A model generated the notes under the pieces. It saw nothing but the letters and a program-made list of their open reading frames with translations, was not told where the DNA came from and made no database searches. Below, one piece after another: positions 17,870 to 32,593 of a DNA stretch of 56,031 nt. Each line of letters opens with the position of its first letter. Position 1 is the stretch's first letter. This DNA comes from a virus (taxonomy: Duplodnaviria > Caudoviricetes): positions 1 through 56,031 of the IMG/VR virus record IMGVR_UViG_3300008108_000486, one strand, 5' to 3'. A program made the position numbers and the translations under genes.

Positions 17870-17924
17870 TTCTGCCCCCACGCTTTTACTCGTCATTTGA
17901 GCGTTGGGGGCAGAACTCTTTTTT
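17870..17924 (+). terminator. intrinsic terminator with an unusually large (15-nt) loop
   Basis: TTCTGCCCCCACGCT/AGCGTTGGGGGCAGAA stem followed by a T tract. Confidence 0.85.
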
Positions 17925-18044
17925 ACCCCCTTTCTCTATACGAACGACACGAAATAAATAAAACTTGATTTATAGAATAGAGTGTGGAAAAATTGTCTTA
18001 TGCGTTAGGGAACGCATGAACGACACAGAGAGAAAAGAGAGAAA

Positions 18045-18497
18045 ATGCTAGACAAAGACAAGCCTATTCAGGGTGTTTCTGTTTATGCCGAGTTTTCCAA
18101 GCCCGGCTATCGCACAGAGATTTTTATTACCCCTGACGGATTTTCCAACGAGGGCAAAGTAGTTCCTGCCAAAATCTTTAGCAGGATTACCAGCGCAGAC
18201 AAGCCAAAGAAAGTTTGGCAACAATACGCAGTTCAGTTAGTAGAGGACATGGCTAAGGTTGGTGAAACCTTGCTAGACCCTAGTAAGCGTGAGGACTATG
18301 TATCAAAGCGACTAGAGCATTTAGAAAATGTATTCGCAGGTTTAGTTGCTAATGAGTGGCAGATTACAAAAGAGCCTGTTCTCATAGAAACCAGCAAGAA
18401 CGACTTGTCTGAAATCGCAGAGAGCAAGACACCTGTAAAAATCGTTTATCGTATAAATCAGAGCAGGAAAGCACTTGGCTTTCCAGAAAACTTCTAG
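18045..18497 (+). CDS. hypothetical protein upstream of the AAA ATPase
   Basis: 150-aa ORF, first gene of the unit. Confidence 0.75.
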   Translation: MLDKDKPIQGVSVYAEFSKPGYRTEIFITPDGFSNEGKVVPAKIFSRITSADKPKKVWQQYAVQLVEDMAKVGETLLDPSKREDYVSKRLEHLENVFAGLVANEWQITKEPVLIETSKNDLSEIAESKTPVKIVYRINQSRKALGFPENF

Positions 18498-18509
18498 GGG
18501 GTATCCAAA

Positions 18510-19562
18510 ATGGATTTGGAAACTAAATCAAAACTCACTTCCATAAGTGGAAACTTTTGGAGAATAGTAAATGAGTGTCTTATTCAGGGTGTTGATGATG
18601 AGGTTAGACTTAGACTTGGTTCAGAGGTCAAACCTAGTGGTCGTTGCGTTGAGAGAGCGAGTGGTGATGAAAGAAAAGCACGAACAAGTGCGCCTACTCC
18701 TAGTGGTGTAGAAGTGGCAAACATGGAAGCAGATGAGTTCTATGTTCGCCCTAATGGACAAAAGTATTTCACTCGTTCATGGGGTATCCACACAGATACA
18801 GCAGTTCTACGCAAAGCAAGAGAAGCAACTAATAACTTCTTTTCTAGTGGAGTTGGTTCGCCACAGTTCGCTTACTTCTATGGAGTTCCGGGAACAGGAA
18901 AAACTGCTTTGGTAGAAGCAAGTTTCCATGACGACAAAGTTATTACTTTGGTTGGTAATGGTGATACTGATACCAATGATTTCTATGGTTCTTTTATTCA
19001 GACCCCAAGTGGAAAGTTTGAGTGGGTTGATGGTGGATTTATTGAGGCAGTAGAAAATGGTTATGTATTTTTTATTGACGAGATAGGTCTTATTGACCCT
19101 AAAGCGTTGGCAATAGTTTATGCCGTCATGGACGGACGAAAGAGTATTACTATTCCAATGAACCCTGATAGAGGAACTATCAAAGTCCATGAAAACTTTT
19201 ATGTAGTTTCAGCGACTAATCCAAATGCTCCCGGAGTTAGACTTTCCGAAGCCATGCTTTCTCGCTTCCAACTACAAGTGGAACTAACAACTGATTATGC
19301 GCTCGCAAAGAAGTTAGGTGTTCCAGCGACAATGGTGAGCGTTGCTCAAAATCTTTACAAGCGCACACAAGGCGATAGTGCTGAAATCTCATGGTCGCCA
19401 CAAATGCGTGAGTTGATAGGTTTTAGAGATACTTCCGATATTTTCGGAACAGAGTTCGCTATCGCTAACATGATAGCGAGCGCACCTGAACTAGACAGAG
19501 ATGTTGTAGTTGATGTTATCTCTAGGGCGTATGGGGCAGAATACAAACCTGCCAAGATTTAG
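18510..19562 (+). CDS. MoxR/CobS-like AAA+ ATPase
   Basis: GVPGTGKT, FEWVDG, FIDEI, ATNP, LSEAMLSRF, MREL. Confidence 0.9.
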   Translation: MDLETKSKLTSISGNFWRIVNECLIQGVDDEVRLRLGSEVKPSGRCVERASGDERKARTSAPTPSGVEVANMEADEFYVRPNGQKYFTRSWGIHTDTAVLRKAREATNNFFSSGVGSPQFAYFYGVPGTGKTALVEASFHDDKVITLVGNGDTDTNDFYGSFIQTPSGKFEWVDGGFIEAVENGYVFFIDEIGLIDPKALAIVYAVMDGRKSITIPMNPDRGTIKVHENFYVVSATNPNAPGVRLSEAMLSRFQLQVELTTDYALAKKLGVPATMVSVAQNLYKRTQGDSAEISWSPQMRELIGFRDTSDIFGTEFAIANMIASAPELDRDVVVDVISRAYGAEYKPAKI

Positions 19563-19593
19563 AAAGGGTTTTTACCCCCTTTCTATATATGGT

Positions 19594-19631
19594 GAAAGGT
19601 GGGGGCTTCTCTCTCCCCCACCTTTCCTTTC
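19594..19631 (+). terminator. terminator-like hairpin with CTTCTCTCT loop
   Basis: Perfect 12-bp stem GAAAGGTGGGGG/CCCCCACCTTTC. Confidence 0.75.
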
Positions 19632-19688
19632 TAGGATAGAAATGATACGATTAGAGAGTAAGGACACACGACAAGAAAAGGGAAAGAA

Positions 19689-21467
19689 ATGGCACACCTA
19701 AAGCATAAGGAAGTAGCCAACTCAAAGGTGAAAACACCTAGCGAGTGGTTAGGCGTTGGTTATGAAATCACGCAGTTAGTAAATCGTTGGTCTGATAGAA
19801 CAGACCTAGTTGCGCTAATAAATCAAGAAGCAGGACAAGGCGCACCTGCTTGCTATATCCCAATGTTCGCAGAAATAGAAGTAAATACAAAAGAAGCGTT
19901 TGGGGAAATAACAACTCCTAATCAAGTAAATGATTTGACTAAGAGAAGCAACCAATACGAGTGGGCTAAAGCCACAGGTGCTATTCGCCATGAGGCTTAC
20001 CACGCAAAGTTTTCTGCTTGGGATATGCCAAGTGCTTACAAGGCACTAAAGCAAGATGAATACGAGGCTTTGGTTTTGCTAGAGGAAGGTCGCATAGAAG
20101 CGTGGGGTATCAAGACCCACCCTGACGCAAAAGTTTTTCTACGAGCAAGTGCTATGGGTTTGATTATTGACGAAGCAAAAGAAGTATTTGGAAAAGAAAC
20201 TTCTAGCGTTTCTAGTGCTAGTTCGTTAGTTGGTTTATGCCACGCAAGAGTTATCGCAGGTTCGCTTGATATAGATGAAGCAAGAGAACTTATGGACGAA
20301 GTAGAAAAAGTTTTAGGAAAAGAGTTAGTAGATAAACTCGTTGCGATTATCAGAGAGTTTCAGGCACACGCAACTCACAATGATATTTCTGCTTGCTATC
20401 CACTCGCTATTGAGTGGGCAAAGTTAGTTCGTGATAAGAAAGAGGAAGCAGGTGAAAGTCCTGCCGACTTTTCAGACTTTATGGAAATGATGAGCGAGAT
20501 GTTAGGGGAAATGGAAAAGCAAGTTCCCATTTCTAATGAAAGAGATTTACAAGACCAAAAGCGTTCAGAGGATATGAAAGAGAGCGCAGTTGCTAAAGAA
20601 CAGACTTCTAAAGAGCAAAAGAAAAATGAGGAAATTGCTAAAGAAATCTTTTCTAAATCAACAGGTCCCGGAGAAAGCGCAACTCGTTCTCGCCTAACAG
20701 AGAAAAGACCCCCTAATGGAAAAGAGCGCAATAGCGCAGTAAAAATCTCAAAGGCTTTGGAAAGAGCAAAGTATCGTGAGCGTGGGATTACAGAAGTAGG
20801 AAGTATCGTTCCTCCCGGAAAACTAAATACACGAAAGATTATTCAGGCTAAGGCTTTGGAACAAAGAGGCGTATTTACTCAACCAACTGCTTTCACAAAG
20901 AAAGTTCGTAAGCACACAGACGAGCCACCACTAACAGTTGGAGTAATGGTAGATATTTCAGGGTCAATGGGAAGTGCCATGAACCCAATGGCTTCTACTG
21001 CTTGGATTATGAGTGAGGCAGTTCGCCGAGTTCAGGGAAATGTCGCTATGGTTTATTACGGAAGTGATGTGTTCCCAACTCTCAAAAGAGGGCAACGACT
21101 AAAAGATGTAAATGTCTATTCTGCCCCTGACGGAACTGAAAAGTTTGATAAGGCGTTTCGTGCTTTGGACGGCGCACTTCACTTGATTTATGGTGAGGGC
21201 GCACGATTACTCGTAATCGTTTCGGACGGACAATACACACATGAGGAAACAGAAAGAGCGAAGTCATGGATAAAGACCTGCTCTAAGCATGGTGTCGCAG
21301 TTCTATGGCTTCCTATTGGCGACAATGGATACCACGCAAAAAATATATGCGAGGGTTCTAACGCAGAAATAGTTGTCGGCATAACTGACCCAACAAGTTC
21401 GGCGTTGGCTATTGGCAAGTCTGCCGAGAAAACTCTCTCAACGGCAGGAAAGCGTATGAGCGCATAA
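19689..21467 (+). CDS. CobT-like protein: N-terminal HExxH zincin-like domain plus C-terminal VWA domain
   Basis: HEAYH, LEEGRIE, GKLN, MIDAS DISGSM, IVSDG. Confidence 0.88.
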   Translation: MAHLKHKEVANSKVKTPSEWLGVGYEITQLVNRWSDRTDLVALINQEAGQGAPACYIPMFAEIEVNTKEAFGEITTPNQVNDLTKRSNQYEWAKATGAIRHEAYHAKFSAWDMPSAYKALKQDEYEALVLLEEGRIEAWGIKTHPDAKVFLRASAMGLIIDEAKEVFGKETSSVSSASSLVGLCHARVIAGSLDIDEARELMDEVEKVLGKELVDKLVAIIREFQAHATHNDISACYPLAIEWAKLVRDKKEEAGESPADFSDFMEMMSEMLGEMEKQVPISNERDLQDQKRSEDMKESAVAKEQTSKEQKKNEEIAKEIFSKSTGPGESATRSRLTEKRPPNGKERNSAVKISKALERAKYRERGITEVGSIVPPGKLNTRKIIQAKALEQRGVFTQPTAFTKKVRKHTDEPPLTVGVMVDISGSMGSAMNPMASTAWIMSEAVRRVQGNVAMVYYGSDVFPTLKRGQRLKDVNVYSAPDGTEKFDKAFRALDGALHLIYGEGARLLVIVSDGQYTHEETERAKSWIKTCSKHGVAVLWLPIGDNGYHAKNICEGSNAEIVVGITDPTSSALAIGKSAEKTLSTAGKRMSA

Positions 21468-21528
21468 AGGTTTCGTGGTTGGGTATCTTTCCCTGAAAGA
21501 AAGTGTGTCCCCCCGACTACGGATAACG

Positions 21529-21568
21529 GAAACCCCCCACAAGTGGTTGTGTGGGGGTTTCTGCTTTT
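21529..21568 (+). terminator. intrinsic terminator
   Basis: GAAACCCCC../..GGGGGTTTC stem with a T-rich tail. Confidence 0.7.
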
Positions 21569-21718
21569 ACGGGCATATATAAGAGAGGGGTAAAAACAAT
21601 GGGGGAAAACTTTTACCCCCTACCTATATACGGAACTTGTATTTTTAGTTTCCTACTCCTGCTGGCAACCCAGGCCAAAACCACGCTCAAAATAAGGGTT
21701 GGTTTTGACGCTTACTTT

Positions 21719-21858
21719 GGGAACTGAAAACTTTTGGTTGAGATAGGGGGCTGGTGCTGGCAACTTAGATTTTTAGATGTCCCTGGGTAGCCCAAGTTAT
21801 TGAGCGTAATTTTCCGACCAGGTAGCATGAAACAGGGAACTGAAAACTTTTGGTTGAG
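21719..21858 (+). repeat. 24-bp direct repeat GGGAACTGAAAACTTTTGGTTGAG
   Basis: Copies at about 21719 and 21835; variant at 30555. Confidence 0.8.
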
Positions 21859-21926
21859 GCAAATGCTTGAGGTTCTATTTTAGAAATGCTAGGCTTGTGC
21901 CAAGACAAATGACGAAAGGGTAAAAA

Positions 21927-22082
21927 ATGGCAAAGTATGAAGTTGTAGTTTCAGCAGAAGTAAGAACAGTTTGGGAAGCCGATAGCAAGGAACAGGCTCT
22001 ACGACAGGCAGAGGCTTGGACGGCAGAGGAATATGGCGACTTGGTTCATAAGGCAAACTTTGGAGTAAGGGAGTTAGCGTAA
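21927..22082 (+). CDS. hypothetical protein (51 aa, not in the ORF track)
   Basis: MAKYEVVVSAEVRTVWEADSKEQA...; leader CAAATGACGAAAGG. Confidence 0.7.
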   Translation: MAKYEVVVSAEVRTVWEADSKEQALRQAEAWTAEEYGDLVHKANFGVRELA

Positions 22083-22315
22083 TGGCACAGATACATTATT
22101 TGATTTGCTTTGATACCGAAACAGAAAAGTGGTCGTCAGCAGATGAAGCTTTGGGTGCTTTTTTCAAAGACGGATATGTTTGGGACGGAGACGAGTTCGG
22201 CGAGCAAGGTGAGTGGCGTATTCTAAATATGAACGACCCGAAAGAAGTTGATATGGAATACGAGGGAACTGAAAAGGTCGGCTTGTTGCTTCGCAAACTA
22301 AACGGCATGGAGTAG
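22082..22315 (+). CDS. hypothetical protein
   Basis: TAATG coupling. Confidence 0.7.
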   Translation: MAQIHYLICFDTETEKWSSADEALGAFFKDGYVWDGDEFGEQGEWRILNMNDPKEVDMEYEGTEKVGLLLRKLNGME

Positions 22316-22342
22316 CAAGCGATATATAACTAGGGGGTAAAA

Positions 22343-22816
22343 ATGCCAACGGCAGGAGATTACGAGATAGAGTTTGTATGGCTTGACGGGAACATACCTG
22401 ACGGAGACCACCAGGATCCGATTTGGTGGGAGAACGGCGCGGTCTGTTCAGTTCGGCTTGACGATTTAGAAGTTGTAATTCATAAAGACGGCGCGACAAG
22501 AATTGAGGATAGGGAAACGGGTTCTACTTATAGAAGTAGTAGCGAGTTCCCGAAAGAGATAAACGGGGACAAAGCTTTAGAGGAAGCAAGTTCAGGAAAC
22601 TATCCGCGCTTTTATTGGGAGAATAACCCGTGGTTTGATATTTACACTACTGACGGAACTCACCTAGATATGGTTGGACACGGGGCTGATGAAGTCTTTG
22701 AGAGTGCTTGTGATTATTTGATTTCCGAGTTTGTAAATCTTTGCCAAATTGAGAACAACCAAATCCCACAGGTTGAGGGTAAGCGTGTTGTGGTTGTTGA
22801 TTTTGGAGACGAGTAG
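22343..22816 (+). CDS. hypothetical acidic protein
   Basis: NNPWF motif; RBS within the GGGGTAAAA element. Confidence 0.75.
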   Translation: MPTAGDYEIEFVWLDGNIPDGDHQDPIWWENGAVCSVRLDDLEVVIHKDGATRIEDRETGSTYRSSSEFPKEINGDKALEEASSGNYPRFYWENNPWFDIYTTDGTHLDMVGHGADEVFESACDYLISEFVNLCQIENNQIPQVEGKRVVVVDFGDE

Positions 22817-22861
22817 TTATAGAATAGATACTACATAAAGGGTAAAAACGAAGGGACACAA

Positions 22862-23512
22862 ATGCACACAGTTCAGTTGCTTTTCGTAGAAGCAAATACA
22901 CACCAAGAAGCAGTAGAGATAGTAGATAGCAAGATAAATGACTGGGAAGGTCATTGGTCAGACTGGCACGCCATTGGTGGTCGTTGGTCAGGTATCTTTG
23001 GCGAGAACCACCCTGATGTAATCAACTACAAGAACGAACCTGAACTATTTGAGAAGCACCTAAACGATTTTGTTGAGGGTCGCAAGAAGCGTTTGGAAGA
23101 GTGCTTACAACGCTTTGAGGAAGGTGGGAAATCACTTAGTCAGTTCGTTGATACTTACAACCCTGAAATCTTTGATATTGATATGAACCTTTACTCCCTG
23201 AAATGTATGGTCAAAGTTTTGGCAGGGGACTGGACTTACGACAGTTGCTTCTTTGACCTAGAGGCTTATTCTGAAACCCTAGTTCCTTTTTTGGAAATGG
23301 AATATATGATTTCAGCGTATCCAATAGGGTTTGGATACACAGAAAAAGGAAACGCAGTTGTAATCGCTCATAGCCAAGATGAGAACGACAACATAGTAGT
23401 CGTAGAGCATTTGATTACACCAAAACAGTTAGAACGAATTATCGAAATAGCACAAGAAGTTTTAGGCGAAATGGGAAAACAGGCTCTTGGTATAAAGACA
23501 GGAAGTAAATAA
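22862..23512 (+). CDS. hypothetical protein (probably two genes fused by a deletion near 23290)
   Basis: WSDW..IGGRWSG family N-terminal part joined to MEYMISAYPIG... Confidence 0.65.
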   Translation: MHTVQLLFVEANTHQEAVEIVDSKINDWEGHWSDWHAIGGRWSGIFGENHPDVINYKNEPELFEKHLNDFVEGRKKRLEECLQRFEEGGKSLSQFVDTYNPEIFDIDMNLYSLKCMVKVLAGDWTYDSCFFDLEAYSETLVPFLEMEYMISAYPIGFGYTEKGNAVVIAHSQDENDNIVVVEHLITPKQLERIIEIAQEVLGEMGKQALGIKTGSK

Positions 23513-23513
23513 A

Positions 23514-24032
23514 ATGGGTATGGATGTGTATGGAAAAAATCCAACAAGCGAAGTTGGTTCTTACTACCGACAAAATGTTTGGGGGTGGCATCCACTTTGG
23601 CAGTATGTCGAGATATATCACGAACAGTATGCCGAGAAAGTAAAGTATGGTCATAGCAACGACGGCGACGGACTAGAAGCAGAGGACAGTTCGCAGTTGG
23701 CTCTATCTCTAAAACAAGACATTATGACTGGGTTAGCGCAAGCAAGACTTGATGAGTGGCAAAAAGAACTTGATGAATTGCCAATGGATAAATGCGACCT
23801 ATGTGAAGGCACAGGAATACGCAAAGATAAAGTCGGAAAAGAGTTTGGACAACATAAGAAAGAACTTTCTGCCGAACAAAGCGAAAAGTATGGTCGCCGT
23901 ATTGGTTGGTGTAATGGTTGCGACGGCGCAGGGGAGAAAGAACCTTTTGTAAAAAACTACGGAACTAGCGTTGAGGACATTAGAGATTTTGCTGATTTCC
24001 TTGCCGACTGTGGTGGCTTTGAGATTTGCTGA
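23514..24032 (+). CDS. hypothetical protein with DnaJ-like CxxCxGxG motifs
   Basis: MGMDVYG, NVWGWHPLW, SNDG, CDLCEGTG, CNGCDG, CGGFEIC. Confidence 0.8.
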   Translation: MGMDVYGKNPTSEVGSYYRQNVWGWHPLWQYVEIYHEQYAEKVKYGHSNDGDGLEAEDSSQLALSLKQDIMTGLAQARLDEWQKELDELPMDKCDLCEGTGIRKDKVGKEFGQHKKELSAEQSEKYGRRIGWCNGCDGAGEKEPFVKNYGTSVEDIRDFADFLADCGGFEIC

Positions 24033-24113
24033 ACACACCGAAAGGGATAACTTGTTTTTACCCCTTTCTATAATATAGACTTAGAACACCGAAGCAAGAG
24101 AAAGGGAAATCAA

Positions 24114-24305
24114 ATGACGGCTTTCGGAGAAATGGTAAAGAACACTACCTATGTAGTGCAGACACCGACTTGTTTTGTTTGTGGCAAGGACGGCGAAGTA
24201 GAAGTGCCAATGGAAGGATTTTTGCGCCGACAACTCGGTGCGCTAATCCAAGACGCTTATCCTGAAATCGGCTCCATAAATAAGAGAGGGGTAAAAACGG
24301 CGTGA
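24114..24305 (+). CDS. small zinc-binding protein (C-terminus apparently truncated)
   Basis: C..CG...LIQDAYP motif that runs abruptly into the intergenic motif. Confidence 0.6.
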   Translation: MTAFGEMVKNTTYVVQTPTCFVCGKDGEVEVPMEGFLRRQLGALIQDAYPEIGSINKRGVKTA

Positions 24306-24463
24306 GAACTAAAAAGGAAATCCGTAGAGACATAAAAGACCAAGCGGAACAGATAATGTATTTTGAGGCGAGTATGCCCGACATAGACAAAGCTACAAAG
24401 ATGTTAGCCGAACGGCTAGAGAGTATTTACTACGCTGGATACCACGATTGCGAGGATAGATAA
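24302..24463 (+). CDS. hypothetical protein (53 aa, not in the ORF track)
   Basis: GTG start, MRTKKEIRRDIK..., TAATG-coupled to the next gene. Confidence 0.6.
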   Translation: MRTKKEIRRDIKDQAEQIMYFEASMPDIDKATKMLAERLESIYYAGYHDCEDR

Positions 24464-24666
24464 TGTTTTTCAACGGATTTACTTTACTAATGATGATTGT
24501 TGGTGGGGCTATTGGTTTCGGGATTTCACGCTGGACAATAGATACCCAATGGCTTGTGGAGAAACTTTCTAACAGAGTTGGATACGAATACGACAATGAG
24601 GGGCAGATAGTTATTTACACAGGTCTTTATGATGAGGAACAGGAAGTCTATGCTGATGGCTACTGA
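24463..24666 (+). CDS. small membrane protein
   Basis: N-terminal TM helix. Confidence 0.65.
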   Translation: MFFNGFTLLMMIVGGAIGFGISRWTIDTQWLVEKLSNRVGYEYDNEGQIVIYTGLYDEEQEVYADGY

Positions 24667-24797
24667 TTTTTACCCCACTTATCTATACGCCACGACACGA
24701 ACTAAAATGGATTTGACGAAATAAAACTTTCTAGGATAGAGTTATCTCACTAGGCAAGGAGCCTAGAAAAGACAAAGTGAAAGGTAGGAAGTAGCCA

Positions 24798-25232
24798 ATG
24801 GCTAGCACTATCAAAAGCACAACAACCAGCAAGACCAAGCAGGTCGCTGGTAAGACAGTAAAAACCACCACAACTGAAACAACAGTAGTGGCTACTAGCG
24901 ATATTCTTTCGCTAGACAAAAGCGCAAAGAAAGCAAAAACTCTTATCGCAGAGTTAGTGCGTTTGCGTGAAGCGATTTCCGATATGGAAAAAGCAAAGAA
25001 AGAAACCACCGAAGCCATTTACGAACTTATGGGTTATGAGCAAGTAAAGGTTGGAGAAAAAACAAAGTGGGTAGGCGTTGCTAAAAAGGGAACAGTAAAA
25101 GGCGCAACGATTATCACGATTTCAGAAAGACCACGCAAAGATGTGGATACAAAAGCCTTAGAACTTTCGTATCCTGAAGTGTATGCTTCGGTGGCATACG
25201 ATAACCCTTATTTGGTTATCTTGGCGAAGTAG
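24798..25232 (+). CDS. hypothetical protein
   Basis: Own promoter (TTGACG 24713 / TAGAGT 24737) and terminator; D.K.L...YPEVY motif. Confidence 0.8.
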   Translation: MASTIKSTTTSKTKQVAGKTVKTTTTETTVVATSDILSLDKSAKKAKTLIAELVRLREAISDMEKAKKETTEAIYELMGYEQVKVGEKTKWVGVAKKGTVKGATIITISERPRKDVDTKALELSYPEVYASVAYDNPYLVILAK

Positions 25233-25257
25233 GTATCCCTAGTCCTACAAGTCGGCG

Positions 25258-25290
25258 AACCCCCTTGCGAAAGCAGGGGGGTTTTGCTTT
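25258..25290 (+). terminator. intrinsic terminator
   Basis: AACCCCCTTGC-GAAA-GCAGGGGGGTT plus T tract. Confidence 0.85.
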
Positions 25291-25517
25291 TACCCCCTTT
25301 CTATATATAGGAGAGGGGTAAAAAGAAACGGCACGGCACGCTATTGCGAAAGAGCAGGAGAGTGTTATAGAATAGAACTACCGAACTAGGGAAAGGTAAA
25401 ACAATGAAAGCAAGTTGCGTAGAGTGCGGGCGAGTATTCGACCTAACTAATGAAACGGATTTACAGGAAGCAAAATAAGACCTAACTATTTCAATAGTAG
25501 AAATAAAGGCGAGCAGT

Positions 25518-25769
25518 ATGGAAGAAGCCGAAGCGGTTATGCAGAGGTTCATAGATGAAATCGGCAAGGTTATGACGGACGAGGTTCGTTGGGACGAAGC
25601 GGATTGGAGTATTCAGGAAAACACTATGAACGCAGAAGGAACAGGTTGGGAAGTAACGGACGAGGGTGTTCCAGAATACTTTGAGATGAGTGATGTGGAA
25701 GCAGATGCCGACACACTTGCGAGCGCAGGACACGGAACAGACGAGGATTACGGATACTATGGAGATTAG
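25518..25769 (+). CDS. hypothetical acidic protein (5' end apparently lost)
   Basis: SDVEADADTLASAG.GTDEDYG motif; the frame is open upstream to an abrupt junction near 25475. Confidence 0.7.
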   Translation: MEEAEAVMQRFIDEIGKVMTDEVRWDEADWSIQENTMNAEGTGWEVTDEGVPEYFEMSDVEADADTLASAGHGTDEDYGYYGD

Positions 25770-25810
25770 AGCGATATATAAGAGAGGGGTAAAAAGTGGG
25801 AGGTGTAAAA

Positions 25811-25951
25811 ATGAAAAAGGGAAATAGCAAAAGTGCGGTGAGAAAGAACGCCGACAAACTAGATGAACTAATGCGGAAAATGGCAAGCGAAAAAACCTAC
25901 AAGGATTATCTAAAAGTAAGAACAGAGTTTCGCGCCGAGTTAGGGCTATAA
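25811..25951 (+). CDS. small basic protein (46 aa, not in the ORF track)
   Basis: RBS GGAGGT; followed by a terminator. Confidence 0.6.
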   Translation: MKKGNSKSAVRKNADKLDELMRKMASEKTYKDYLKVRTEFRAELGL

Positions 25952-25966
25952 GTAAAAACAGGAAAG

Positions 25967-26005
25967 AGTCCCTGGATCCGAATTGGGTTCAGGGATTATT
26001 TTCTT
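25967..26005 (+). terminator. intrinsic terminator
   Basis: AGTCCCTGGATCC/GGGTTCAGGGATT stem with a T-rich tail. Confidence 0.7.
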
Positions 26006-26016
26006 TAGGCGTGTTG

Positions 26017-26045
26017 TTGTAAATGTCAGAGAACTAGGATAGATT
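26017..26045 (+). promoter_or_regulatory. sigmaA-type early promoter with conserved spacer
   Basis: TTGTAA-17 nt (ATGTCAGAGAACTAGGA)-TAGATT. Confidence 0.75.
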
Positions 26046-26085
26046 TATCTCACTAGCAAAACGCTAGAGAACTAGGGAGAAAAAA

Positions 26086-26478
26086 ATGACACAAGGAAAA
26101 GCAGTAGTTATCAAGACAGATGGCTCAAAAGAGGTTGTTACTTTCACGATTGGTGACTCTTACAAACTACTATCAAACACAGTCGAGGGAATGATTGAGT
26201 GTGTGCGGTTGGCAGAAGATACCGATATGTGGTGCAACGAAAATGGAATTGCAGAAGGTCGCGATTTGAATCTAATGGCTTCGGCTATCTATAACGAAAC
26301 TTTCGGCGTAGCGAATCCTATTCTTGGAAATGTAATCATTACAGGTGGCGCAGATGATGAGGGTGAAACCCTTGGGCTTACCGAGGAGCAGGTTCAGAAG
26401 TGGCTCGCCTATAACAAGGCGGTAATTCCAACGGCTTACTTTGAAGACCCAATGTATGCCGAATACCTAAGCAGGTAG
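26086..26478 (+). CDS. DUF3846 domain protein
   Basis: VEGMIECV, MWCNENG, N.MAS, ILGNVIITG, L.EEQ. Confidence 0.85.
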   Translation: MTQGKAVVIKTDGSKEVVTFTIGDSYKLLSNTVEGMIECVRLAEDTDMWCNENGIAEGRDLNLMASAIYNETFGVANPILGNVIITGGADDEGETLGLTEEQVQKWLAYNKAVIPTAYFEDPMYAEYLSR

Positions 26479-26491
26479 AAGAATCAAAAAG

Positions 26492-26524
26492 AGTCCCTCA
26501 CCAAAAGGTGGGGGATTTTTTTTT
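26492..26524 (+). terminator. intrinsic terminator
   Basis: AGTCCCTCACC-AAAA-GGTGGGGGATT plus long T tract. Confidence 0.85.
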
Positions 26525-26539
26525 GCAAAATGCTAAAAA

Positions 26540-26764
26540 ATGTCAGTCTCTTATGAAAGAATAATAAATGTGGAAAACAATGACAAAGCAAGTGAATACG
26601 CATACAAAGCCCTTATGGGTAGCATCTTCGGAACTGCAAAGCCAGTAGACGAAAACCCGATAGTCCAAAAGCGCACCACAATTTGGTTACACGAAAACTT
26701 CACAGATGATGAAATCTGGGAAATGTATGACACCATAAAGTGGGAGCAAGAACTCAAGGAATAA
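26540..26764 (+). CDS. hypothetical protein (true start probably downstream)
   Basis: ORF between promoter-like sequence and terminator. Confidence 0.55.
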   Translation: MSVSYERIINVENNDKASEYAYKALMGSIFGTAKPVDENPIVQKRTTIWLHENFTDDEIWEMYDTIKWEQELKE

Positions 26765-26774
26765 AGTAAAGAGA

Positions 26775-26807
26775 AAGCCCCCGTCAGAAATGGCGGGGGT
26801 TTTTTTT
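26775..26807 (+). terminator. intrinsic terminator
   Basis: AAGCCCCCGTCA-GAAA-TGGCGGGGGTT plus T tract. Confidence 0.85.
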
Positions 26808-26969
26808 ACCCGATTGCTATATATAAGAGAGGGGTAAAAAAGGCTAGGGCTAAGTGTCGGCTAGAAGTGGGAAAGTATTTTCCGGGTGAAATGCATCGGC
26901 AGCTAGCCGGGAAATAATAATCTATGATAGAGTTTGCTTGCCGTAGAAAACTAGGGAAAGGAAAAAACT

Positions 26970-27428
26970 ATGAGCGCAATAGGAGTAGCAGAGGGAAAAA
27001 TATCTTTCTCTCTAAATAGTGATTGCCAATGCTTTGACTGTAATAAGTGCGGTATTGGTTATATGGGTGGAGAAGCCGGGGAGAAATGTAGTGACTGCAC
27101 GGGTGGAGTATTAGAAAACGCCAATGGTTGTATGGGTTGTTGGGACGATAGCGAAAGTATTTTTTACGACACTATCTACGAATGGCGCAAGGAAGTCGGA
27201 GTGAATTGGGGCTTAGTAAGGATTGACGGAAGAGGTATGGGCTGGACTAAAGAAATGGGAAGCGCCGTAGTGCCGTTGGATAAGGCTTTGAAGGCTTTGA
27301 CACTAAGAGGTGACTTTCGAATTGAGGTTGAGTTTAGTGGAAAGAGTTTCAGCGCTCGCCGTTATTCTCACGATGAGCCGACAGGAGCGAGTTTCTTTTT
27401 CACACTAGTCAAGGGTGAAGAAGACTAG
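26970..27428 (+). CDS. Cys-rich hypothetical protein
   Basis: Multiple CxC/CxxC, MGW..G, SHDEPTG; CTAGGGAAAGG leader. Confidence 0.8.
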   Translation: MSAIGVAEGKISFSLNSDCQCFDCNKCGIGYMGGEAGEKCSDCTGGVLENANGCMGCWDDSESIFYDTIYEWRKEVGVNWGLVRIDGRGMGWTKEMGSAVVPLDKALKALTLRGDFRIEVEFSGKSFSARRYSHDEPTGASFFFTLVKGEED

Positions 27429-27446
27429 AAAGGCTATGGACGCGAG

Positions 27447-27472
27447 AAGCCCTGCCGAGAGGTAGGGCTTTC
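27447..27472 (+). terminator. terminator-like hairpin
   Basis: AAGCCCTGCC-GAGA-GGTAGGGCTT. Confidence 0.7.
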
Positions 27473-27508
27473 GTGTTATTGTTGGCATATATAGAAGAGG
27501 GGTAAAAA

Positions 27509-27820
27509 ATGGATGAGATACCGAATGTAAAGAATGTAATCTTTATTGGAGATTACTTTTCAATGATTGTGAGCGTTGCCGTTCCTGGATCTGAAGTAAA
27601 GGATGGCGAAGCCTATGAAGACGCTTGCTTGCGTTCCGCTGGGACTTTGATGAAAGAGCATTATGGTTGGGATGTTCAAGCAGTTAGTAGACATATTGGC
27701 GTTCTCGATGAGGGAGACCCTAATTGTGAGACTTGCTATGGAGCAGGGAAGGTTAGTTCAGAGGTAGCTGGCTCAATGAGAGAAGTCGAGTGTCCCGATT
27801 GCTTTGCTAATAGGGGGTAA
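27509..27820 (+). CDS. hypothetical protein with a C-terminal zinc finger
   Basis: CETCYGAG and CPDC motifs. Confidence 0.75.
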   Translation: MDEIPNVKNVIFIGDYFSMIVSVAVPGSEVKDGEAYEDACLRSAGTLMKEHYGWDVQAVSRHIGVLDEGDPNCETCYGAGKVSSEVAGSMREVECPDCFANRG

Positions 27821-27858
27821 AATTTTTGCACCGAGAGTTTCAGATGTTAGAATAGTAG

Positions 27859-27957
27859 TCCGGGTAGTAGTGCGGATTCCCTTCCTGCGCTCCCCGTTGA
27901 GGTGAGATACCCTACTCACCGCACTTTCACCCATGTTCCCTAGCATGGGTGAAGTGT
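27859..27957 (+). ncRNA. candidate three-hairpin small RNA with UCCCU(AG)-type loops
   Basis: Promoter TTGCAC(27826)/TAGAAT(27848), no ORF, three consecutive stem-loops with loops TTCCCT, ATACCCTA and TTCCCTAG; next promoter starts at 27963. Confidence 0.7.
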
Positions 27958-27962
27958 CTATC

Positions 27963-27991
27963 TTGCAAATGTCAGGTAAGTAGTTTAGACT
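27963..27991 (+). promoter_or_regulatory. sigmaA-type early promoter with conserved spacer
   Basis: TTGCAA-17 nt (ATGTCAGGTAAGTAGTT)-TAGACT. Confidence 0.8.
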
Positions 27992-28101
27992 TATAGTAAC
28001 TTGGTAGGGGCTAGTCGCTGGACACCTGAACGCCTAGAACTTGCAAGGGGCGGAAACAATACGACACCCTACCGAGTCTCTAACCTAGGGAAGGAAAGTA
28101 A

Positions 28102-28335
28102 ATGAGTTACGAAGGAAGTATGAAAGGCTCAGGTATCTACGCCGAAGATGTGACTTTTGAAGTCGAGTGCGAAGAGTGCGGTAAGTCTTGGGAAGAAGAT
28201 TTTCAGACAGATGACTGGGGAGATGTTCAAGCAGAAGTAAAGTGCGAGTGCGGTCACGAATGGACTTTCTCAAGGGAGAGAGGCGAAGTAGATGACTCTA
28301 ATGAACCCGATAGATTAGAAGACCTATGGGACTAA
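28102..28335 (+). CDS. small acidic zinc-ribbon protein
   Basis: CEECG...CECGH; CTAGGGAAGG leader. Confidence 0.75.
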   Translation: MSYEGSMKGSGIYAEDVTFEVECEECGKSWEEDFQTDDWGDVQAEVKCECGHEWTFSRERGEVDDSNEPDRLEDLWD

Positions 28336-28338
28336 AGG

Positions 28339-28368
28339 AAGCCCCGCCGAAAGGCGGGGTTTTTCTTT
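28339..28368 (+). terminator. intrinsic terminator
   Basis: AAGCCCCGCC-GAAA-GGCGGGGTT plus T tract. Confidence 0.9.
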
Positions 28369-28430
28369 GCCCCGATATATAGAAGAGGGGTAAAAAATCA
28401 GGGAAGTGCAATGCCGTTATTCTTGAAGTC

Positions 28431-28679
28431 ATGGAAATCGTTCAAAAGTATTATCATTCAAATGGTGGTAGCGCTCCGTTTATGGTCGCAATAGTTGATG
28501 ACCCTGCCGATGGAGACACAAAACTTGTAATAATGTTTGAAGAAGAAGAATGCACCGCAGTTCTTTCTTTAGATACTTTGATAGAGAGTGAAGACATAGG
28601 TAAGAAAAACTCTTATTCAGGGGAAAGATACGAGTATGCTTTGCGTGATGAACTTTGGAATGACTCTAACTACTACTAA
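28431..28679 (+). CDS. hypothetical protein
   Basis: YH.NG..APF motif. Confidence 0.7.
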   Translation: MEIVQKYYHSNGGSAPFMVAIVDDPADGDTKLVIMFEEEECTAVLSLDTLIESEDIGKKNSYSGERYEYALRDELWNDSNYY

Positions 28680-28702
28680 AAAAATCAGTAAGGAAAAAAG
28701 AA

Positions 28703-29272
28703 GTGACCACAATAGCTGCCGTTCAGGGTGAGGGCTGGGCTGTTGTTGGCTATGACTCTAGAGTTTCAGAAGAAGATGGTAGGGCTTATACCTTGCCGAA
28801 AGATAATGGAAAAATAATAAAGAATGGTTCTTATCTTTTAGGTGCGGCCGGGGATATGAGAGCAATAAATCTTTTGGCTCATGTTTTCAAGCCACCGATA
28901 TGTAACCCAACAACAAGAGGCATAAAGTTAGATAAGTTTATTACTACACACTTTATCCCGGATCTAAAAAAGTGTTTTGAGGAAAACTCATATTCAAAAG
29001 ATGGCGAGCAAGACTCTCAAATAATGGTTTTGGTAAATGGAACTATTTATGAGATAGGCGAAGATTATTCTTGGTGTCACGATGAAATGGGAGTTTATGC
29101 TATTGGTTCAGGTGCGCCGTATGCTTTAGGTGCGCTCAATGCGTTGGCAGAAGGAAAGAAAAGAACTCTTACAGGGGCTAGAGGTAGTTTGAAGCTTGCG
29201 CTCGCCGTATCTTGTAAGTTTGATAAGCAGTCAGGCGAACCTATTTATTTACAAACTCAATACACCGAGTAA
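28703..29272 (+). CDS. Ntn-hydrolase, HslV/proteasome-beta-like protease
   Basis: MTTIAA (N-terminal Thr nucleophile), DSR, K, GAAG, AIGSG..YALG. Confidence 0.85.
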   Translation: MTTIAAVQGEGWAVVGYDSRVSEEDGRAYTLPKDNGKIIKNGSYLLGAAGDMRAINLLAHVFKPPICNPTTRGIKLDKFITTHFIPDLKKCFEENSYSKDGEQDSQIMVLVNGTIYEIGEDYSWCHDEMGVYAIGSGAPYALGALNALAEGKKRTLTGARGSLKLALAVSCKFDKQSGEPIYLQTQYTE

Positions 29273-29304
29273 GGGGTTTTACCCCCCTACTCTATATGCA
29301 CCGA

Positions 29305-29424
29305 CTATTTAGGACAGTCAGGGCAGATTAGGTTGCGGTAATAATCTCTTTGGCGTATTTGGAACTTTTCTCCGCATAGGTAGCAGTTTATCCAAATCAT
29401 CACTTGCTTTGTTCTTGTTGCCAC
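29305..29424 (-). CDS. small zinc-ribbon protein
   Basis: GTG start after AGAAAGGGA RBS; CYLCG...CPDC. Confidence 0.65.
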   Translation of the reverse strand: MATRTKQVMIWINCYLCGEKFQIRQRDYYRNLICPDCPK

Positions 29425-29498
29425 TTGAGTTCCCTTTCTCTTGGCTTGGTATAAGTCTATCCTAGAAACACGCCGAAATAAGTATTTCGCTAGGTGTG

Positions 29499-29527
29499 TT
29501 GAAAACATCAGAGAACTATCATAGACT
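29499..29527 (+). promoter_or_regulatory. sigmaA-type early promoter with conserved spacer
   Basis: TTGAAA-17 nt (ACATCAGAGAACTATCA)-TAGACT. Confidence 0.75.
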
Positions 29528-29555
29528 TGTATTACTAGGGAAAGGAGGGAACCAA

Positions 29556-29780
29556 ATGGGAAAAAGTTTTGCAGGAATAGACGCACCGAAGTATCCAGAA
29601 ATCGAAGTTCAACTTACTGGCGAAGATGGAAATGCCGTAGCGATTATGGGTCGTGTGTCTAACGCTATGAAGAAGGCAGGAGTTTCTCAAGAAGAAATAA
29701 ATGCTTATCTTGATGAAAGTATGTCGAGCGATTACGACAACTTGCTACGAACTGCCGTGAAGTGGGTTTCAGTAGCGTAA
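29556..29780 (+). CDS. hypothetical protein (L.G.DGNA family)
   Basis: LTGEDGNA.AIMG.V..AMK.AG...DYDNLL; CTAGGGAAAGGAGG leader. Confidence 0.85.
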   Translation: MGKSFAGIDAPKYPEIEVQLTGEDGNAVAIMGRVSNAMKKAGVSQEEINAYLDESMSSDYDNLLRTAVKWVSVA

Positions 29781-29793
29781 GGTTCTAAAAGAT

Positions 29794-29822
29794 AAGGGGG
29801 GCGAAAGCCCCCTTTATTTTTT
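29794..29822 (+). terminator. intrinsic terminator
   Basis: GGGGGC-GAAA-GCCCCC plus T tract. Confidence 0.85.
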
Positions 29823-29849
29823 ACCTCTTTTTTATTTATAGGTATGCCG

Positions 29850-29878
29850 TTGTAAAAGTCAGGGAACTAGTTTAGACT
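29850..29878 (+). promoter_or_regulatory. sigmaA-type early promoter with conserved spacer
   Basis: TTGTAA-17 nt (AAGTCAGGGAACTAGTT)-TAGACT. Confidence 0.8.
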
Positions 29879-29907
29879 AAAGACAAGGGAACTAACTAGG
29901 GAGAAAT

Positions 29908-30489
29908 ATGAAGCAAGATAGTTTAGAAAGTAAAATCCTTTTTCCTACCAAATGGGTAGATGAAAATTGTTGGTATTGGCTTGGACAACTCAATAAAAAT
30001 AATCCTTCATATGTCGTAAAAGTAGAAGGCAAGAGAATTGCAATTAGAGTGCGCCGACTAATGTGGGAAATAAATGTTGTTGATAACAAAGAAAAACCTA
30101 TAACAAAGCGTGATGTAATAATTTCAGTGTGCGGAGATAATTTATGTGTAAACCCTTCTCACTTGAAAAAATATACAAAGACAGAAGCACTTGACTTGGG
30201 CTACCTAAATCAAGCGCAGAGGACACAAGAAAGATTTGCAAAAATTACTCATTGTCCTAGAGGACACGAATACACAGAAGAAAACACTGCCTATAACACA
30301 GGCAAGTGGGCTACCAATAGAACTAGAACTTATAAGTGCCGTTATTGTAAAACTTGTAATCGTGAGAGAGCGGCTCAAAGAAAACTCAAACTAGGTGCAA
30401 CACGACTTGTAAAAGATTACGAAGGCAGAGGACTACTAACTACCGAACTTATGGACATAATCTTCAAAAGACCAGTGAGAAAGTTCTAG
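29908..30489 (+). CDS. HNH (His-Cys box) endonuclease-like protein with a C-terminal THCPRGHEY zinc domain
   Basis: CWYWLG, C.D.LCVNPSHL, THCPRGHEYTEENT, C..C. Confidence 0.75.
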   Translation: MKQDSLESKILFPTKWVDENCWYWLGQLNKNNPSYVVKVEGKRIAIRVRRLMWEINVVDNKEKPITKRDVIISVCGDNLCVNPSHLKKYTKTEALDLGYLNQAQRTQERFAKITHCPRGHEYTEENTAYNTGKWATNRTRTYKCRYCKTCNRERAAQRKLKLGATRLVKDYEGRGLLTTELMDIIFKRPVRKF

Positions 30490-30614
30490 AAAGATTTTTA
30501 CCCCCCTGTTATATATGCCGAACGATAGAAAAAGTTTTTGGAGGTCCAGGACCCGGAAATGAAAACTTTTGGTTCAGACTTGAAAAAGTCAGGGAAGTAG
30601 ATTATTATTCAGGT

Positions 30615-30806
30615 ATGAAGTTCTTACCCGATAGCGCAATACTTGGAACGCTTGGACATATCAAGCACGCTGGCAAGGCACGCCCTAAGAAGCGTATTGC
30701 TCGCCGAGTTGATACACGCTCCGAGTTTGTAGGTGGTGGCGACTTTAGAAGTCTTGAGCAGTTGCTCGCACTAGCGAAACAACACGCCGAGAAATCAGGG
30801 AAGTAG
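30615..30806 (+). CDS. small basic protein, likely leaderless
   Basis: ATG 6 nt after the -10 of promoter TTGAAA(30580). Confidence 0.55.
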   Translation: MKFLPDSAILGTLGHIKHAGKARPKKRIARRVDTRSEFVGGGDFRSLEQLLALAKQHAEKSGK

Positions 30807-30858
30807 AAAAAAGCAGGGAAGTAAGATAGAGTTATCTCACTAGGGAAAGGGAAAACAA

Positions 30859-31056
30859 ATGGAAGCAGTATTTACTTGGGTAGAGCGAAAGACTAACTCA
30901 CGCCTTACACGCAGAGGTCGCTTGGTTATTGGCTGGGCTATTGCGCTCGCCTTCCTTGTGGCGTTCGGACTTGCTAACTATGCGACAACACCTGCCGAGT
31001 GCAGAGTGGAAGTAGAGCAGATGTCTCAGTTCTGCAAAGACTTGTTGTATCCGTGA
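30859..31056 (+). CDS. small membrane protein
   Basis: LTRRGR motif, TM helix, two Cys. Confidence 0.75.
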   Translation: MEAVFTWVERKTNSRLTRRGRLVIGWAIALAFLVAFGLANYATTPAECRVEVEQMSQFCKDLLYP

Positions 31057-31083
31057 GAGAGATATATAAGAGAGGGGTAAAAA

Positions 31084-31551
31084 GTGAAGAAGAATAAAGG
31101 CGCTACCGCACCGACTTGGACTAAGTTCGAAGAAGTTTATCCGTCAGAAGGAAAGCTTGGCGAGAACGAGACAATGTGGCAAAACAGATTTTATGTTGTT
31201 GTGCGAAAGTATCTTCAAGGAACGCACGAAGGTGCTATTCACTTGAGTATTCGACATATAGACAGAAAAGCAATTAGAGACTGGCGACACTTTCAGAGGA
31301 TCAAAAATGAACTTGCTGGAGAGAGCAGAGAGGGTATGGAAGTTTTTCCACCCGAAGAGTTTTTAGTTGATACCGCTAATCAGTATCACCTATTCGTTTT
31401 ACCAGTTGGACAAACTACGCCGTTCACTTGGAAGTCTCAAGGTCGTATTGTTGGAAATAAGAATGATGAAGAAGTTATTAGAAAAATGGTTGCTTTGGGA
31501 TTAGACCCTAAAGACGCTAGAAACTCAGTTCAGAGGGAAGTGGAAGCGTGA
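31084..31551 (+). CDS. conserved phage hypothetical protein
   Basis: HLSIR..DW..FQRIKNEL.G...EVFP....LVD.ANQYHL. Confidence 0.85.
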   Translation: MKKNKGATAPTWTKFEEVYPSEGKLGENETMWQNRFYVVVRKYLQGTHEGAIHLSIRHIDRKAIRDWRHFQRIKNELAGESREGMEVFPPEEFLVDTANQYHLFVLPVGQTTPFTWKSQGRIVGNKNDEEVIRKMVALGLDPKDARNSVQREVEA

Positions 31552-31739
31552 GCGACCAAGCAGGATTATCAGACGCAGAGTTCGCTTGCCTTTTGTTTAG
31601 GTCTTGCGGAGTGCCTGAAAGGGCGCTCGCAGGTGCTTTGGGCAGAGACCATTCTGCCGAGTGTGGGTTTTGCCAAGGAACAAAACAGGTAGACCCTAGG
31701 AGCGTTCGAAGATGAGCATATATAGAAGGGGGGTAAAAA

Positions 31740-31919
31740 ATGTATTTTGATACTGGAATGATAATTGGAACAACTATTGCGCTCGCAGGAGCTTGTTTTG
31801 TAATGGTTGTAGGACTGCGCCGTTCAATGGAACTTGAGAGAGTTATTAGAATCAAGAACCGAAGAATCATAGAACTAGAAGCACAACTCGACAAAAGCAA
31901 AAGAAAGGAAAGGATTTAG
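31740..31919 (+). CDS. small membrane protein (not in the ORF track)
   Basis: MYFDTGMIIGTTIALAG... TM helix plus coiled coil. Confidence 0.6.
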   Translation: MYFDTGMIIGTTIALAGACFVMVVGLRRSMELERVIRIKNRRIIELEAQLDKSKRKERI

Positions 31920-31922
31920 TTC

Positions 31923-32129
31923 ATGAAGGTTGCAAAGATTTCAGAAGAAGCCATTAGGCTTTATGAAGAAGGGTTGGCTATTGAGACAGTTGCCGAAGAA
32001 CTTGGAGTTTCTTACCGAACTGCAAGAAAGGCAATAAATCTCAATGGAGCAATAACAAGAGACCCCTCAACAAGGGTCAAGGGTCGAACAGACCCTAGAG
32101 GTGGAAAGAAGGTAACGAAGAAAAGATGA
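31923..32129 (+). CDS. helix-turn-helix DNA-binding protein
   Basis: LYEEGLAIETVAEELGVSYRTARKAI. Confidence 0.8.
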   Translation: MKVAKISEEAIRLYEEGLAIETVAEELGVSYRTARKAINLNGAITRDPSTRVKGRTDPRGGKKVTKKR

Positions 32130-32281
32130 AACTAGAAAACATAGTTTGGACTGCGGTAATAGCCCTAGCCATGGGTGTAGCAACCATAGTCTCTGCCGTT
32201 TATGGAGACTTGACCTACACAGTTGGCTTTGGACTATGTGCCGTGACATCAGCCCTGCTTTCATCAAGAGAAAGACGATAG
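32126..32281 (+). CDS. small two-TM membrane protein (not in the ORF track)
   Basis: ATGA coupling; MKLENIVWTAVIALAMG... Confidence 0.6.
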   Translation: MKLENIVWTAVIALAMGVATIVSAVYGDLTYTVGFGLCAVTSALLSSRERR

Positions 32282-32593
32282 AAGGTTGCATTATAGAGAA
32301 GTGGGGTAAAAGCCACTTCTCTGCAACTTTTTTGGGGCATTTTGGATTTTTAGGCGTTTAGCACGATGATCCATAGTTTTGTGTGTAAAAATCTTTTTTG
32401 AGACACACGCTCAGGGTGACTTGACTGCAGAACTTCCCTGCATTTATGCTATGGTTGTAATCAAGTAAGAACCCAAGTGACACAAGGAGATATACGAATT
32501 AGACACTTGAAGTAAGGCTATCCCCTAAGAGGCGATGGTCGGGTTAGTGAAGTCTCTAACCCTGTCCCCGTAACCTAACAAAGGAAAAACCGA

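Follow-up and report, generated by a model that had tools for sequence, protein, structure and literature searches.

Immediately downstream of the stop codon of a VWA-like phage gene, a stable hairpin presents, in its apical part, exact complements of two blocks in the leader of the same gene, one of them the Shine-Dalgarno (SD) sequence. The gene lies in an IMG/VR record of 56,031 bases with a completeness rating of 42%; this whole stretch of DNA is referred to as the window. The complementarity, its conservation with compensatory change in related loci and the conserved hairpin display are established by the comparisons below. On balance, and with no RNA or other experimental data, we lean toward the interpretation that the 3' element takes part in a long-distance 5'-3' RNA interaction by which the ribosome-binding site (RBS) of its own mRNA is occluded.

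The apical 28 nt of the hairpin carry both leader-complementary blocks (Table 1). The blocks are antiparallel-collinear with the leader, with spacers of 9 nt in the leader and 8 nt on the 3' side. The first-pass annotation had claimed that a stem at these positions encloses two blocks and that these are exact complements of the leader blocks, in the right order and at near-identical spacing (8 versus 9 nt); both claims held on direct reading of the sequence. Its description of the element as a complement of the gene's own RBS held for AGGGAAAGA only, as GGACACAC is not an RBS and is an SD-like sequence near the predicted 5' end of the mRNA. On the plus strand of the 56-kb window, GGACACAC, GTGTGTCC and TCTTTCCCT occur once each and AGGGAAAGA twice. 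The self-structure of the apical part amounts to only -3.6 kcal/mol, versus -12.3 and -12.4 kcal/mol for the leader duplexes, and both blocks are paired exactly in the minimum free energy (MFE) structure of the whole 1912-nt mRNA. The isolated 3' hairpin of the window partly sequesters both blocks, and the SD complement, partly buried, has 3 of its 9 nt unpaired in the MFE structure and an unpaired probability of 0.36. Leader pairing combined with the outer stem is a kissing, pseudoknot-type topology, which is beyond what the folding programs score.

Table 1. Features around the VWA-like gene of the window, followed by the SD-region complements found in the window and in related loci (L numbers).
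Feature	Position	Strand	Sequence and remarks
AAA gene SD region	18496-18503	+	AGGGGGTA; complementary to 19573-19580
AAA_5 (MoxR-like) ATPase gene	18510-19562	+	350 aa; Pfam AAA_5, E 2.5e-14; phrog_16448
Small hairpin at AAA stop codon	19560-19585	+	TAGAAAGGG / CCCTTTCTA
Complement of the AAA gene's own SD	19573-19580	+	TACCCCCT; within hairpin 19560-19585
G+C-rich hairpin between AAA and VWA genes	19594-19626	+	12-bp perfect stem
Putative extended -10 (TG-n-TACGAT)	19643-19651	+	weak, 7/12; strong at the same place in relatives
5' block, SD-like	19662-19669	+	GGACACAC; duplex with 21503-21510, -12.4 kcal/mol
Shine-Dalgarno block	19679-19687	+	AGGGAAAGA; duplex with 21486-21494, -12.3 kcal/mol
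VWA-like gene	19689-21467	+	592 aa; ATG at 19689; stop TAA 21465-21467
3' hairpin	21472-21523	+	-18.8 kcal/mol; z -2.95 versus shuffles
Outer stem of 3' hairpin	21472-21483 / 21512-21523	+	TTCGTGGTTGGG / CCCGACTACGGA; 12 pairs, 3 G-U
Anti-SD block	21486-21494	+	TCTTTCCCT; pairs with 19679-19687
Complement of 5' block	21503-21510	+	GTGTGTCC; complement of 19662-19669
Intrinsic-terminator-like hairpin	21530-21568	+	-24.2 kcal/mol; stem-loop 21534-21557, then T-rich TTTCTGCTTT
SD-region complement, window			AGGGAAAGA; second block GGACACAC
SD-region complement, L010			GGGAAC
SD-region complement, L012			AAGGACGA
SD-region complement, L015			GAAAAGGACGA
SD-region complement, L016			GGGAAAA
SD-region complement, L018 group			CAAAGGGG
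SD-region complement, L033			CTGGAAGGA; second block TTGGACAC
SD-region complement, L034			TGACGGAAGG
SD-region complement, L049			TGACGGAAGGAC
SD-region complement, L039			AACGAAAGGAAA
SD-region complement, L040			GAAAGGAACGGAA

The annotation had also held that the element is not itself the terminator, and the separate hairpin at 21534-21557 bears this out. A terminator requires a U run directly after a G+C-rich stem, and this criterion is unmet by hairpin 21472-21523, which is followed by TAACGGAAAC; a scan for terminators near the hairpin returned 21534-21557 with its T run as the sole site. As regards a single transcript carrying both leader and 3' hairpin, for which transcript data are absent, no terminator-like site was found between the two, and one lies downstream of the hairpin. 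No Rfam family matches hairpin 21472-21523, and at E ≤ 1 nothing overlaps the hairpin body; a ylbH-leader match at 21523-21622 scored 18.2 bits versus a threshold of 50 and touches only the last base of the hairpin. The only Rfam families found in the window are two tRNA genes on the minus strand (4915-4987 and 5618-5688).

The plus strand holds genes between about 9 and 56 kb of the window, and a 3360-aa ORF is located at 39660-49742. The label "VWA gene" given to 19689-21467 in the first-pass annotation is plausible and unproven, and rests on sub-threshold VWA_CoxE matches, an invariant DxSGS motif and the AAA_5 gene that is its upstream neighbor. Neither Pfam nor PHROG gave a match for the 592-aa gene at default thresholds, PDB sequence and profile searches with the protein returned nothing meaningful, and a megablast search of 19000-22500 against phage records found no match. 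VWA_CoxE was matched below threshold in three of four homologues (E 0.0014-0.039). In an alignment of 12 homologues, an N-terminal HExxH (H101, E102, H105) and the DxSGS of the C-terminal VWA-like domain (D422, S424-S426) are invariant. We take the DxSxS to be the VWA metal site, and the HExxH near residue 101 may indicate a metallopeptidase-like N-terminal domain besides the VWA-like DxSGS.

On its own, the window is merely suggestive. When the leaders and 3' regions of 29 plus-strand genes were combined into 841 pairs, the cognate one came 8th in bipartite block score and 14th in duplex energy, and most of the pairs that outrank it arise from a repeated palindromic motif. Cofolding compared with shuffles, a check that the annotation had put forward, gave a divided answer: the gain of -11.8 kcal/mol was reached by 1 of 200 leader shuffles (-5.1 ± 1.9 kcal/mol) and by 30 of 200 3'-UTR shuffles, the latter because the competing hairpin is lost on shuffling. 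Only three genes of the window, the AAA gene, the VWA gene and the gene at 35019-35516, have cognate blocks of 8 nt or more. In whole-mRNA MFE structures, at least 6 SD-region nucleotides were paired with the 3' 90 nt in 6 of 35 other window genes, so MFE end-pairing is not rare and its specificity is limited; none of the six control mRNAs longer than 1 kb showed it. It is the related loci that lift the complementarity above chance.

These relatives comprise 41 IMG/VR loci with 40-91% protein identity, in addition to Actinomycetia phage DSL-LC01; the 41 loci and the window make 31 distinct leader/3'-UTR combinations. Block scores were defined as the longest exact complement between the leader (-40 to -1) and the 70 nt after the stop. 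The exact complement is at least 7 nt long in 25 of the 31 combinations and at least 9 nt in 16, and most clades have a post-stop hairpin with an apical 7-13-nt exact complement of their own SD region, each with its own sequence (Table 1). The first-pass annotation had named absence from homologous loci as a refutation; the complement is instead retained in most clades while its sequence varies. Relative to the close relative L010, the window pair A19685-T21488 is replaced by C-G, a compensatory change. In L033, the flank of the 5' block is altered on both sides, from AAGGACAC/GTGTCCCC to TTGGACAC/GTGTCCAA. The block spacers differ between the two sides, being 11 versus 3 nt in L033 and 10 versus 2 nt in L015. 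A covariation test of the intermolecular pairs, column by column along aligned full-length mRNAs, was tried and dropped: clades differ in where the pairing sits relative to the ATG, and an alignment column therefore does not hold equivalent positions in all of them.

Of the named relatives, DSL-LC01 is the closest, with 43% identity for the homologous protein. This is a metagenome-assembled 129-kb genome for which an Actinomycetia host was predicted and not shown (PMC10611076). The stop of its homologous gene is followed by a 16-bp hairpin in whose loop 13 nt are complementary to the predicted 5' end of the mRNA and 9 nt to the SD.

Swapping the partners between clades reduced the complementarity. 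The mean block was 8.35 nt in cognate pairs (n = 31) versus 6.23 nt in between-clade non-cognate pairs (n = 826). With one representative, the first-listed member, for each of 11 clades, the values were 9.0 versus 6.36 nt, and none of 3589 derangements reached 9.0; duplex energies behaved likewise (-23.5 cognate versus -17.1 swapped, 0 of 3589), and the cofold gain across relatives was -9.7 for cognate and -5.9 for non-cognate pairs. Exact-block scores were used in place of duplexfold on long windows, which over-extends duplexes. The clade labels for the swap and cofold tests were assigned by eye before a tree was built. A quick IQ-TREE tree of 33 rows later put clade D inside E and grouped H, H2, H3 and I, and the between-clade controls are therefore conservative; on this tree, the clade-specific complement solutions fall on separate, well-supported branches. 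L017 was excluded from the tree for an in-frame stop. This homologue (L017:3001-4708) is interrupted at about 3504, with its leader and 3' hairpin intact.

The match was also sought across each whole locus. For 11 of the 31 combinations (8 of 11 clades), the longest complement of the 70-nt 3'-UTR anywhere in the 7.8-kb locus is in the cognate 45-nt leader; by chance, this would be expected at a rate of about 0.6% each. In 18 of 32 cases, the cognate leader strictly outranks every other plus-strand ORF leader of its locus (6-12 others), and some of the leaders that beat it contain the hairpin's own 3' arm inside the leader of the next gene. These results bear on the reading that chance or base composition produced the match, the hairpin being a 3' stabilizer or RNase III site whose pyrimidine-rich loop fits any SD. 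In its favor are the 8th rank among 841 in the window and the 30 of 200 3'-UTR shuffles that reach the cofold gain. However, the absence of any derangement that matches the cognate score, for the VWA gene (0/3589) and for the neighboring AAA gene (0/5000), together with the locus-wide best matches in the cognate leader (11/31), makes this explanation very unlikely.

The complement is not merely present but displayed. Of the 25 sequences whose block reaches 7 nt or more, 23 have it enclosed within the helix of the hairpin, and in this set the block has a mean unpaired probability of 0.70 versus 0.44 for the surrounding 90 nt. RNAalifold on 11 sequences independently recovered the outer stem with the same 12 pairs. 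In the alignment, 88.6% of outer-stem cells are paired versus 41-56% with slid partners; three pairs have changed in both partners, and several alternate between G-U and A-U or G-C, changes that probably reflect folding of the plus-strand RNA. Across relatives the hairpin starts 4-25 nt after the stop. It is more stable on the plus than on the minus strand only in the clades nearest the window, and in several clades no terminator follows it and the next gene starts at once.

These observations also bear on the possibility that the blocks are DNA-level inverted repeats, i.e., protein-binding or recombination sites that flank the gene. The core blocks are indeed perfect inverted repeats without G-U pairs, a palindromic DNA motif is abundant in the window, and the strand comparison does not favor the plus strand: the mean intermolecular duplex energy was -23.5 for the plus strand and -25.4 for the reverse complements. 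This comparison is weak because the core blocks are purely Watson-Crick and duplexfold adds spurious extensions. Against the DNA reading, one copy always overlaps the SD and the other is always apical in an RNA hairpin, the hairpin stem shows G-U-containing covariation on the plus strand, the spacers differ between sides while the block limits slide between clades, and the AAA gene shows the same rule with other sequences. We therefore regard it as highly improbable.

The palindromic motif is a separate observation. It has the form TTTTACCCC-N5-TATATA-N6-GGGGTAAAA and occurs as whole or half sites at 17921-32311 (e.g., 25288-25323 and 26804-26839). Of the 10 F-halves, 8 are found 1-55 nt past an ORF stop; of the 11 R-halves, 6 end 0-5 nt ahead of an ORF start and therefore contain the SD. 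The motif could represent 5'/3' complementarity at the transcript level or a dimeric operator at a TATATA promoter. At 21576-21630, a facing R-half and F-half might pair into a 20-nt hairpin that encloses a 16-codon ORF with its start at 21599.

The 5' partner lies in a leader that is essentially unstructured by itself (-1.5 kcal/mol). Based on the weak extended -10, the 5' end of the window mRNA may be near 19657-19661. This is a model prediction, and it would place the 5' block at the very start of a leader of about 31 nt, of which the two blocks together span 17 nt. Of 31 sequences, 21 have a sigma-70-like promoter with at least 9 of 12 matches located 25-53 nt before the ATG. The G+C-rich hairpin between the AAA and VWA genes could be a terminator or a 5' stabilizer. 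As a side observation, its loop CTTCTCTCT complements AGAGAGAA, a low-complexity sequence in the leader ahead of the gene at 18045, which heads a putative 18045/AAA operon.

The AAA gene obeys the same own-SD rule with a private anti-SD, as far as complementarity is concerned. Its complement is placed in a small hairpin at its stop codon (Table 1), and in relatives the AAA complements are again clade-specific, including GACAGGGA, AACAGGGA, GAACGGAA, AGGACGGA, AAGGACGA and GATAGGACAA among others; in 14 of 29 loci the complement is located 1-13 nt after the stop. With one member for each of 14 clades, the cognate mean was 6.71 versus 5.22, and none of 5000 derangements reached 6.71. The two neighboring genes were further compared within genomes over 29 loci, which are not independent. 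The VWA 3' element matched its own SD better than that of the neighbor in 22 loci, with 5 ties and 2 worse, and the AAA 3' element did so in 20, with 8 ties and 1 worse.

Several results do not fit the pairing reading. In L028, L029, L046, L041, L042 and L036 the complement is only 5-6 nt long, and five to seven relatives have no clear match. In the L025-L031 group, the 3' loop CCTTCC best matches the GGAAG loop of a 5' hairpin, not the SD. Whole-mRNA folding of 23 of the 31 distinct relatives, near-duplicates being omitted, paired at least 6 SD-region nucleotides with the 3'-UTR in 12. Among three cultured Microbacterium phages (30-38% identity), none has a clear leader complement and all have a strong post-stop hairpin; the complement is absent in two, and the third has a 7-mer far upstream. 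These phages are Pumpernickel, Cece and Zooman (L051, L052 and L053). Their hairpins share an apical word, TGTCCCGCA exactly in Cece and Zooman and TGCCCCGCA in Pumpernickel, which recalls GTGTCCCC of the window.

The hairpin loops also look like a generic anti-SD, and other genes have GGACAC or AAAGGACAA in their SDs as well. The first-pass annotation had pointed out that the 3' element matches the leader at 22853 as well, and this held: GGGACACA is present at 22853-22860, followed by an ATG at 22862. GGACAC recurs just upstream of several starts, at 22853-22860 in the window and in L010, L011, L015 and L047, and the match at 22853 may thus reflect a shared SD word. In another reading, the 3' hairpin, with or without the terminator, would be released or transcribed as a small RNA whose anti-SD loop acts in trans on several phage mRNAs with similar SDs, the gene's own among them. 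The hairpin and terminator (21472-21568) are laid out like a 3'UTR-derived sRNA, TGTGTCCC matches the leader at 22853-22860, and GGACAC and AAAGGACAA are shared SD-type motifs. However, in 18 of 32 loci no other leader matches as well as the cognate one, the AAA and VWA genes each match their own 3' element, and several clades lack a terminator and have the next gene immediately after the hairpin. A trans-acting RNA is therefore an unlikely explanation.

In the mechanism that we prefer, occlusion of the RBS in cis, a stable hairpin after the stop would present a pyrimidine-rich anti-SD sequence that pairs with the gene's own SD and, in the clade of the window, also with the SD-like element at the 5' end of the leader. 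After transcription has reached the 3' end, the complete mRNA could close on itself, with its RBS hidden, and would be poorly translatable; the closed mRNA may also be a substrate for a double-strand RNase. The leader is unstructured, and ribosomes could therefore load during transcription of the 1.8-kb gene. In this way, translation would mostly be confined to nascent transcripts, or to mRNAs in which the 3' end has been trimmed off or opened. Comparison of the related loci supports the 5'-3' pairing interpretation of the first-pass annotation, whereas physical pairing in vivo, translational repression, action in cis and a role of RNase III are inferred.

The same 5'-3' pairing might act positively, either as a panhandle that shields both ends from ribonucleases, as in hbs, or by placing terminating ribosomes near the start site for re-initiation. 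The 5' block is located at, or a few nucleotides from, the predicted 5' end, the hairpin begins 4-25 nt after the stop, and 14 of 29 loci have their AAA anti-SD 1-13 nt beyond the stop, a distance that a terminating ribosome can reach. The 5'/3'-UTR interaction of hbs provides a precedent (PMC5737220). However, the conserved partner is the SD itself, so that occlusion is expected to block 30S binding, and distal anti-SD-like sequences repress in B. subtilis (PMC12697547). We consider positive action improbable. A bolder reading is termination-gated initiation, in which a terminating ribosome opens the 3' element and frees the SD for the next ribosome. If this were true, a "one out, one in" loop would fix the ribosome load and the ratio of the AAA and VWA proteins, and untranslated full-length AAA/VWA mRNAs would stay silent. 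In the literature searched, we found no description of such a termination-gated circuit for bacterial or phage mRNAs, and this reading remains doubtful.

The preferred reading, RBS occlusion by a 3' element, belongs to a mechanism class that is already known; the phage instance is not homologous to the known ones and has no Rfam family. In the icaR mRNA of Staphylococcus aureus, a 3'-UTR UCCCCUG pairs with the SD region, which blocks the initiation complex and creates an RNase III substrate (PMC3868564). The phage element is alike in that a 3'-UTR anti-SD is complementary to the SD of the same mRNA, over 9 exact nucleotides in the window. However, the phage loops (UCUUUCCCU, UCGUCCUU and CCUUCC) have no homology to UCCCCUG, and the resemblance is one of mechanism only. 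The phage anti-SD is, moreover, apical in a hairpin directly after the stop, its contact is bipartite (SD and 5'-end element), it covaries across many clades, and the rule extends to the neighboring gene.

In type I toxin mRNAs (hok/Sok and Helicobacter aapA/IsoA), a long-distance 5'-3' interaction with a distal anti-SD closes the full-length mRNA and hides its RBS (PMC6733600), with fold-back inhibition of hok/Sok described by Gultyaev 1997 (cited in PMC6733600). These mRNAs are activated by 3' trimming, and their pairing is supported by covariation (PMC6733600). They share with the phage case a distal anti-SD near the 3' end that is complementary to the 5' region and covaries with it. However, the toxin mRNAs are 200-400 nt long and encode small toxic peptides, whereas the phage mRNAs, at about 1.2 and 1.9 kb, code for large proteins; and the toxins have an antisense RNA antitoxin and metastable 5' hairpins, whereas for the phage gene no antisense partner is seen and the leader is unstructured. 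In B. subtilis reporters, pyrimidine-rich anti-SD-like 8-mers pair with an RBS that lies hundreds of nucleotides upstream (Gill et al. 2025, PMC12697547); they inhibit initiation, promote decay and are depleted from natural genes (PMC12697547). Those 8-mers are synthetic substitutions, whereas the phage anti-SD is conserved and tuned to its gene. The hbs mRNA of B. subtilis is similar in that the two UTRs of one mRNA pair (PMC5737220), and this interaction is reported to control ribonuclease access without masking the SD (PMC5737220). Phage mRNAs controlled from a structure downstream of the coding region are also represented by lambda sib and T7 gene 1.2. Retroregulation of int by sib in lambda involves RNase III and 3' decay, not SD pairing, and the 3' end of the T7 gene 1.2 mRNA can pair with the RBS, depending on RNase III cleavage. 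Features that are unusual here are the display in a post-stop hairpin, the bipartite contact that includes the 5' end, the length of the mRNAs and the private anti-SDs of two neighboring genes. No report of a 3' hairpin directed at a phage gene's own SD was found in the literature searched.

Few natural bacterial-type mRNAs pair their 3' end with their own RBS, namely icaR, hok, aapA and hbs. Here, an anti-SD is kept and co-evolves across a family of uncultured lake phages with predicted Actinomycetia hosts. The family thus offers natural compensatory variants for testing how long-range folding controls translation, and the 3' flanks of phage genes are worth scanning for gene-specific anti-SD hairpins.
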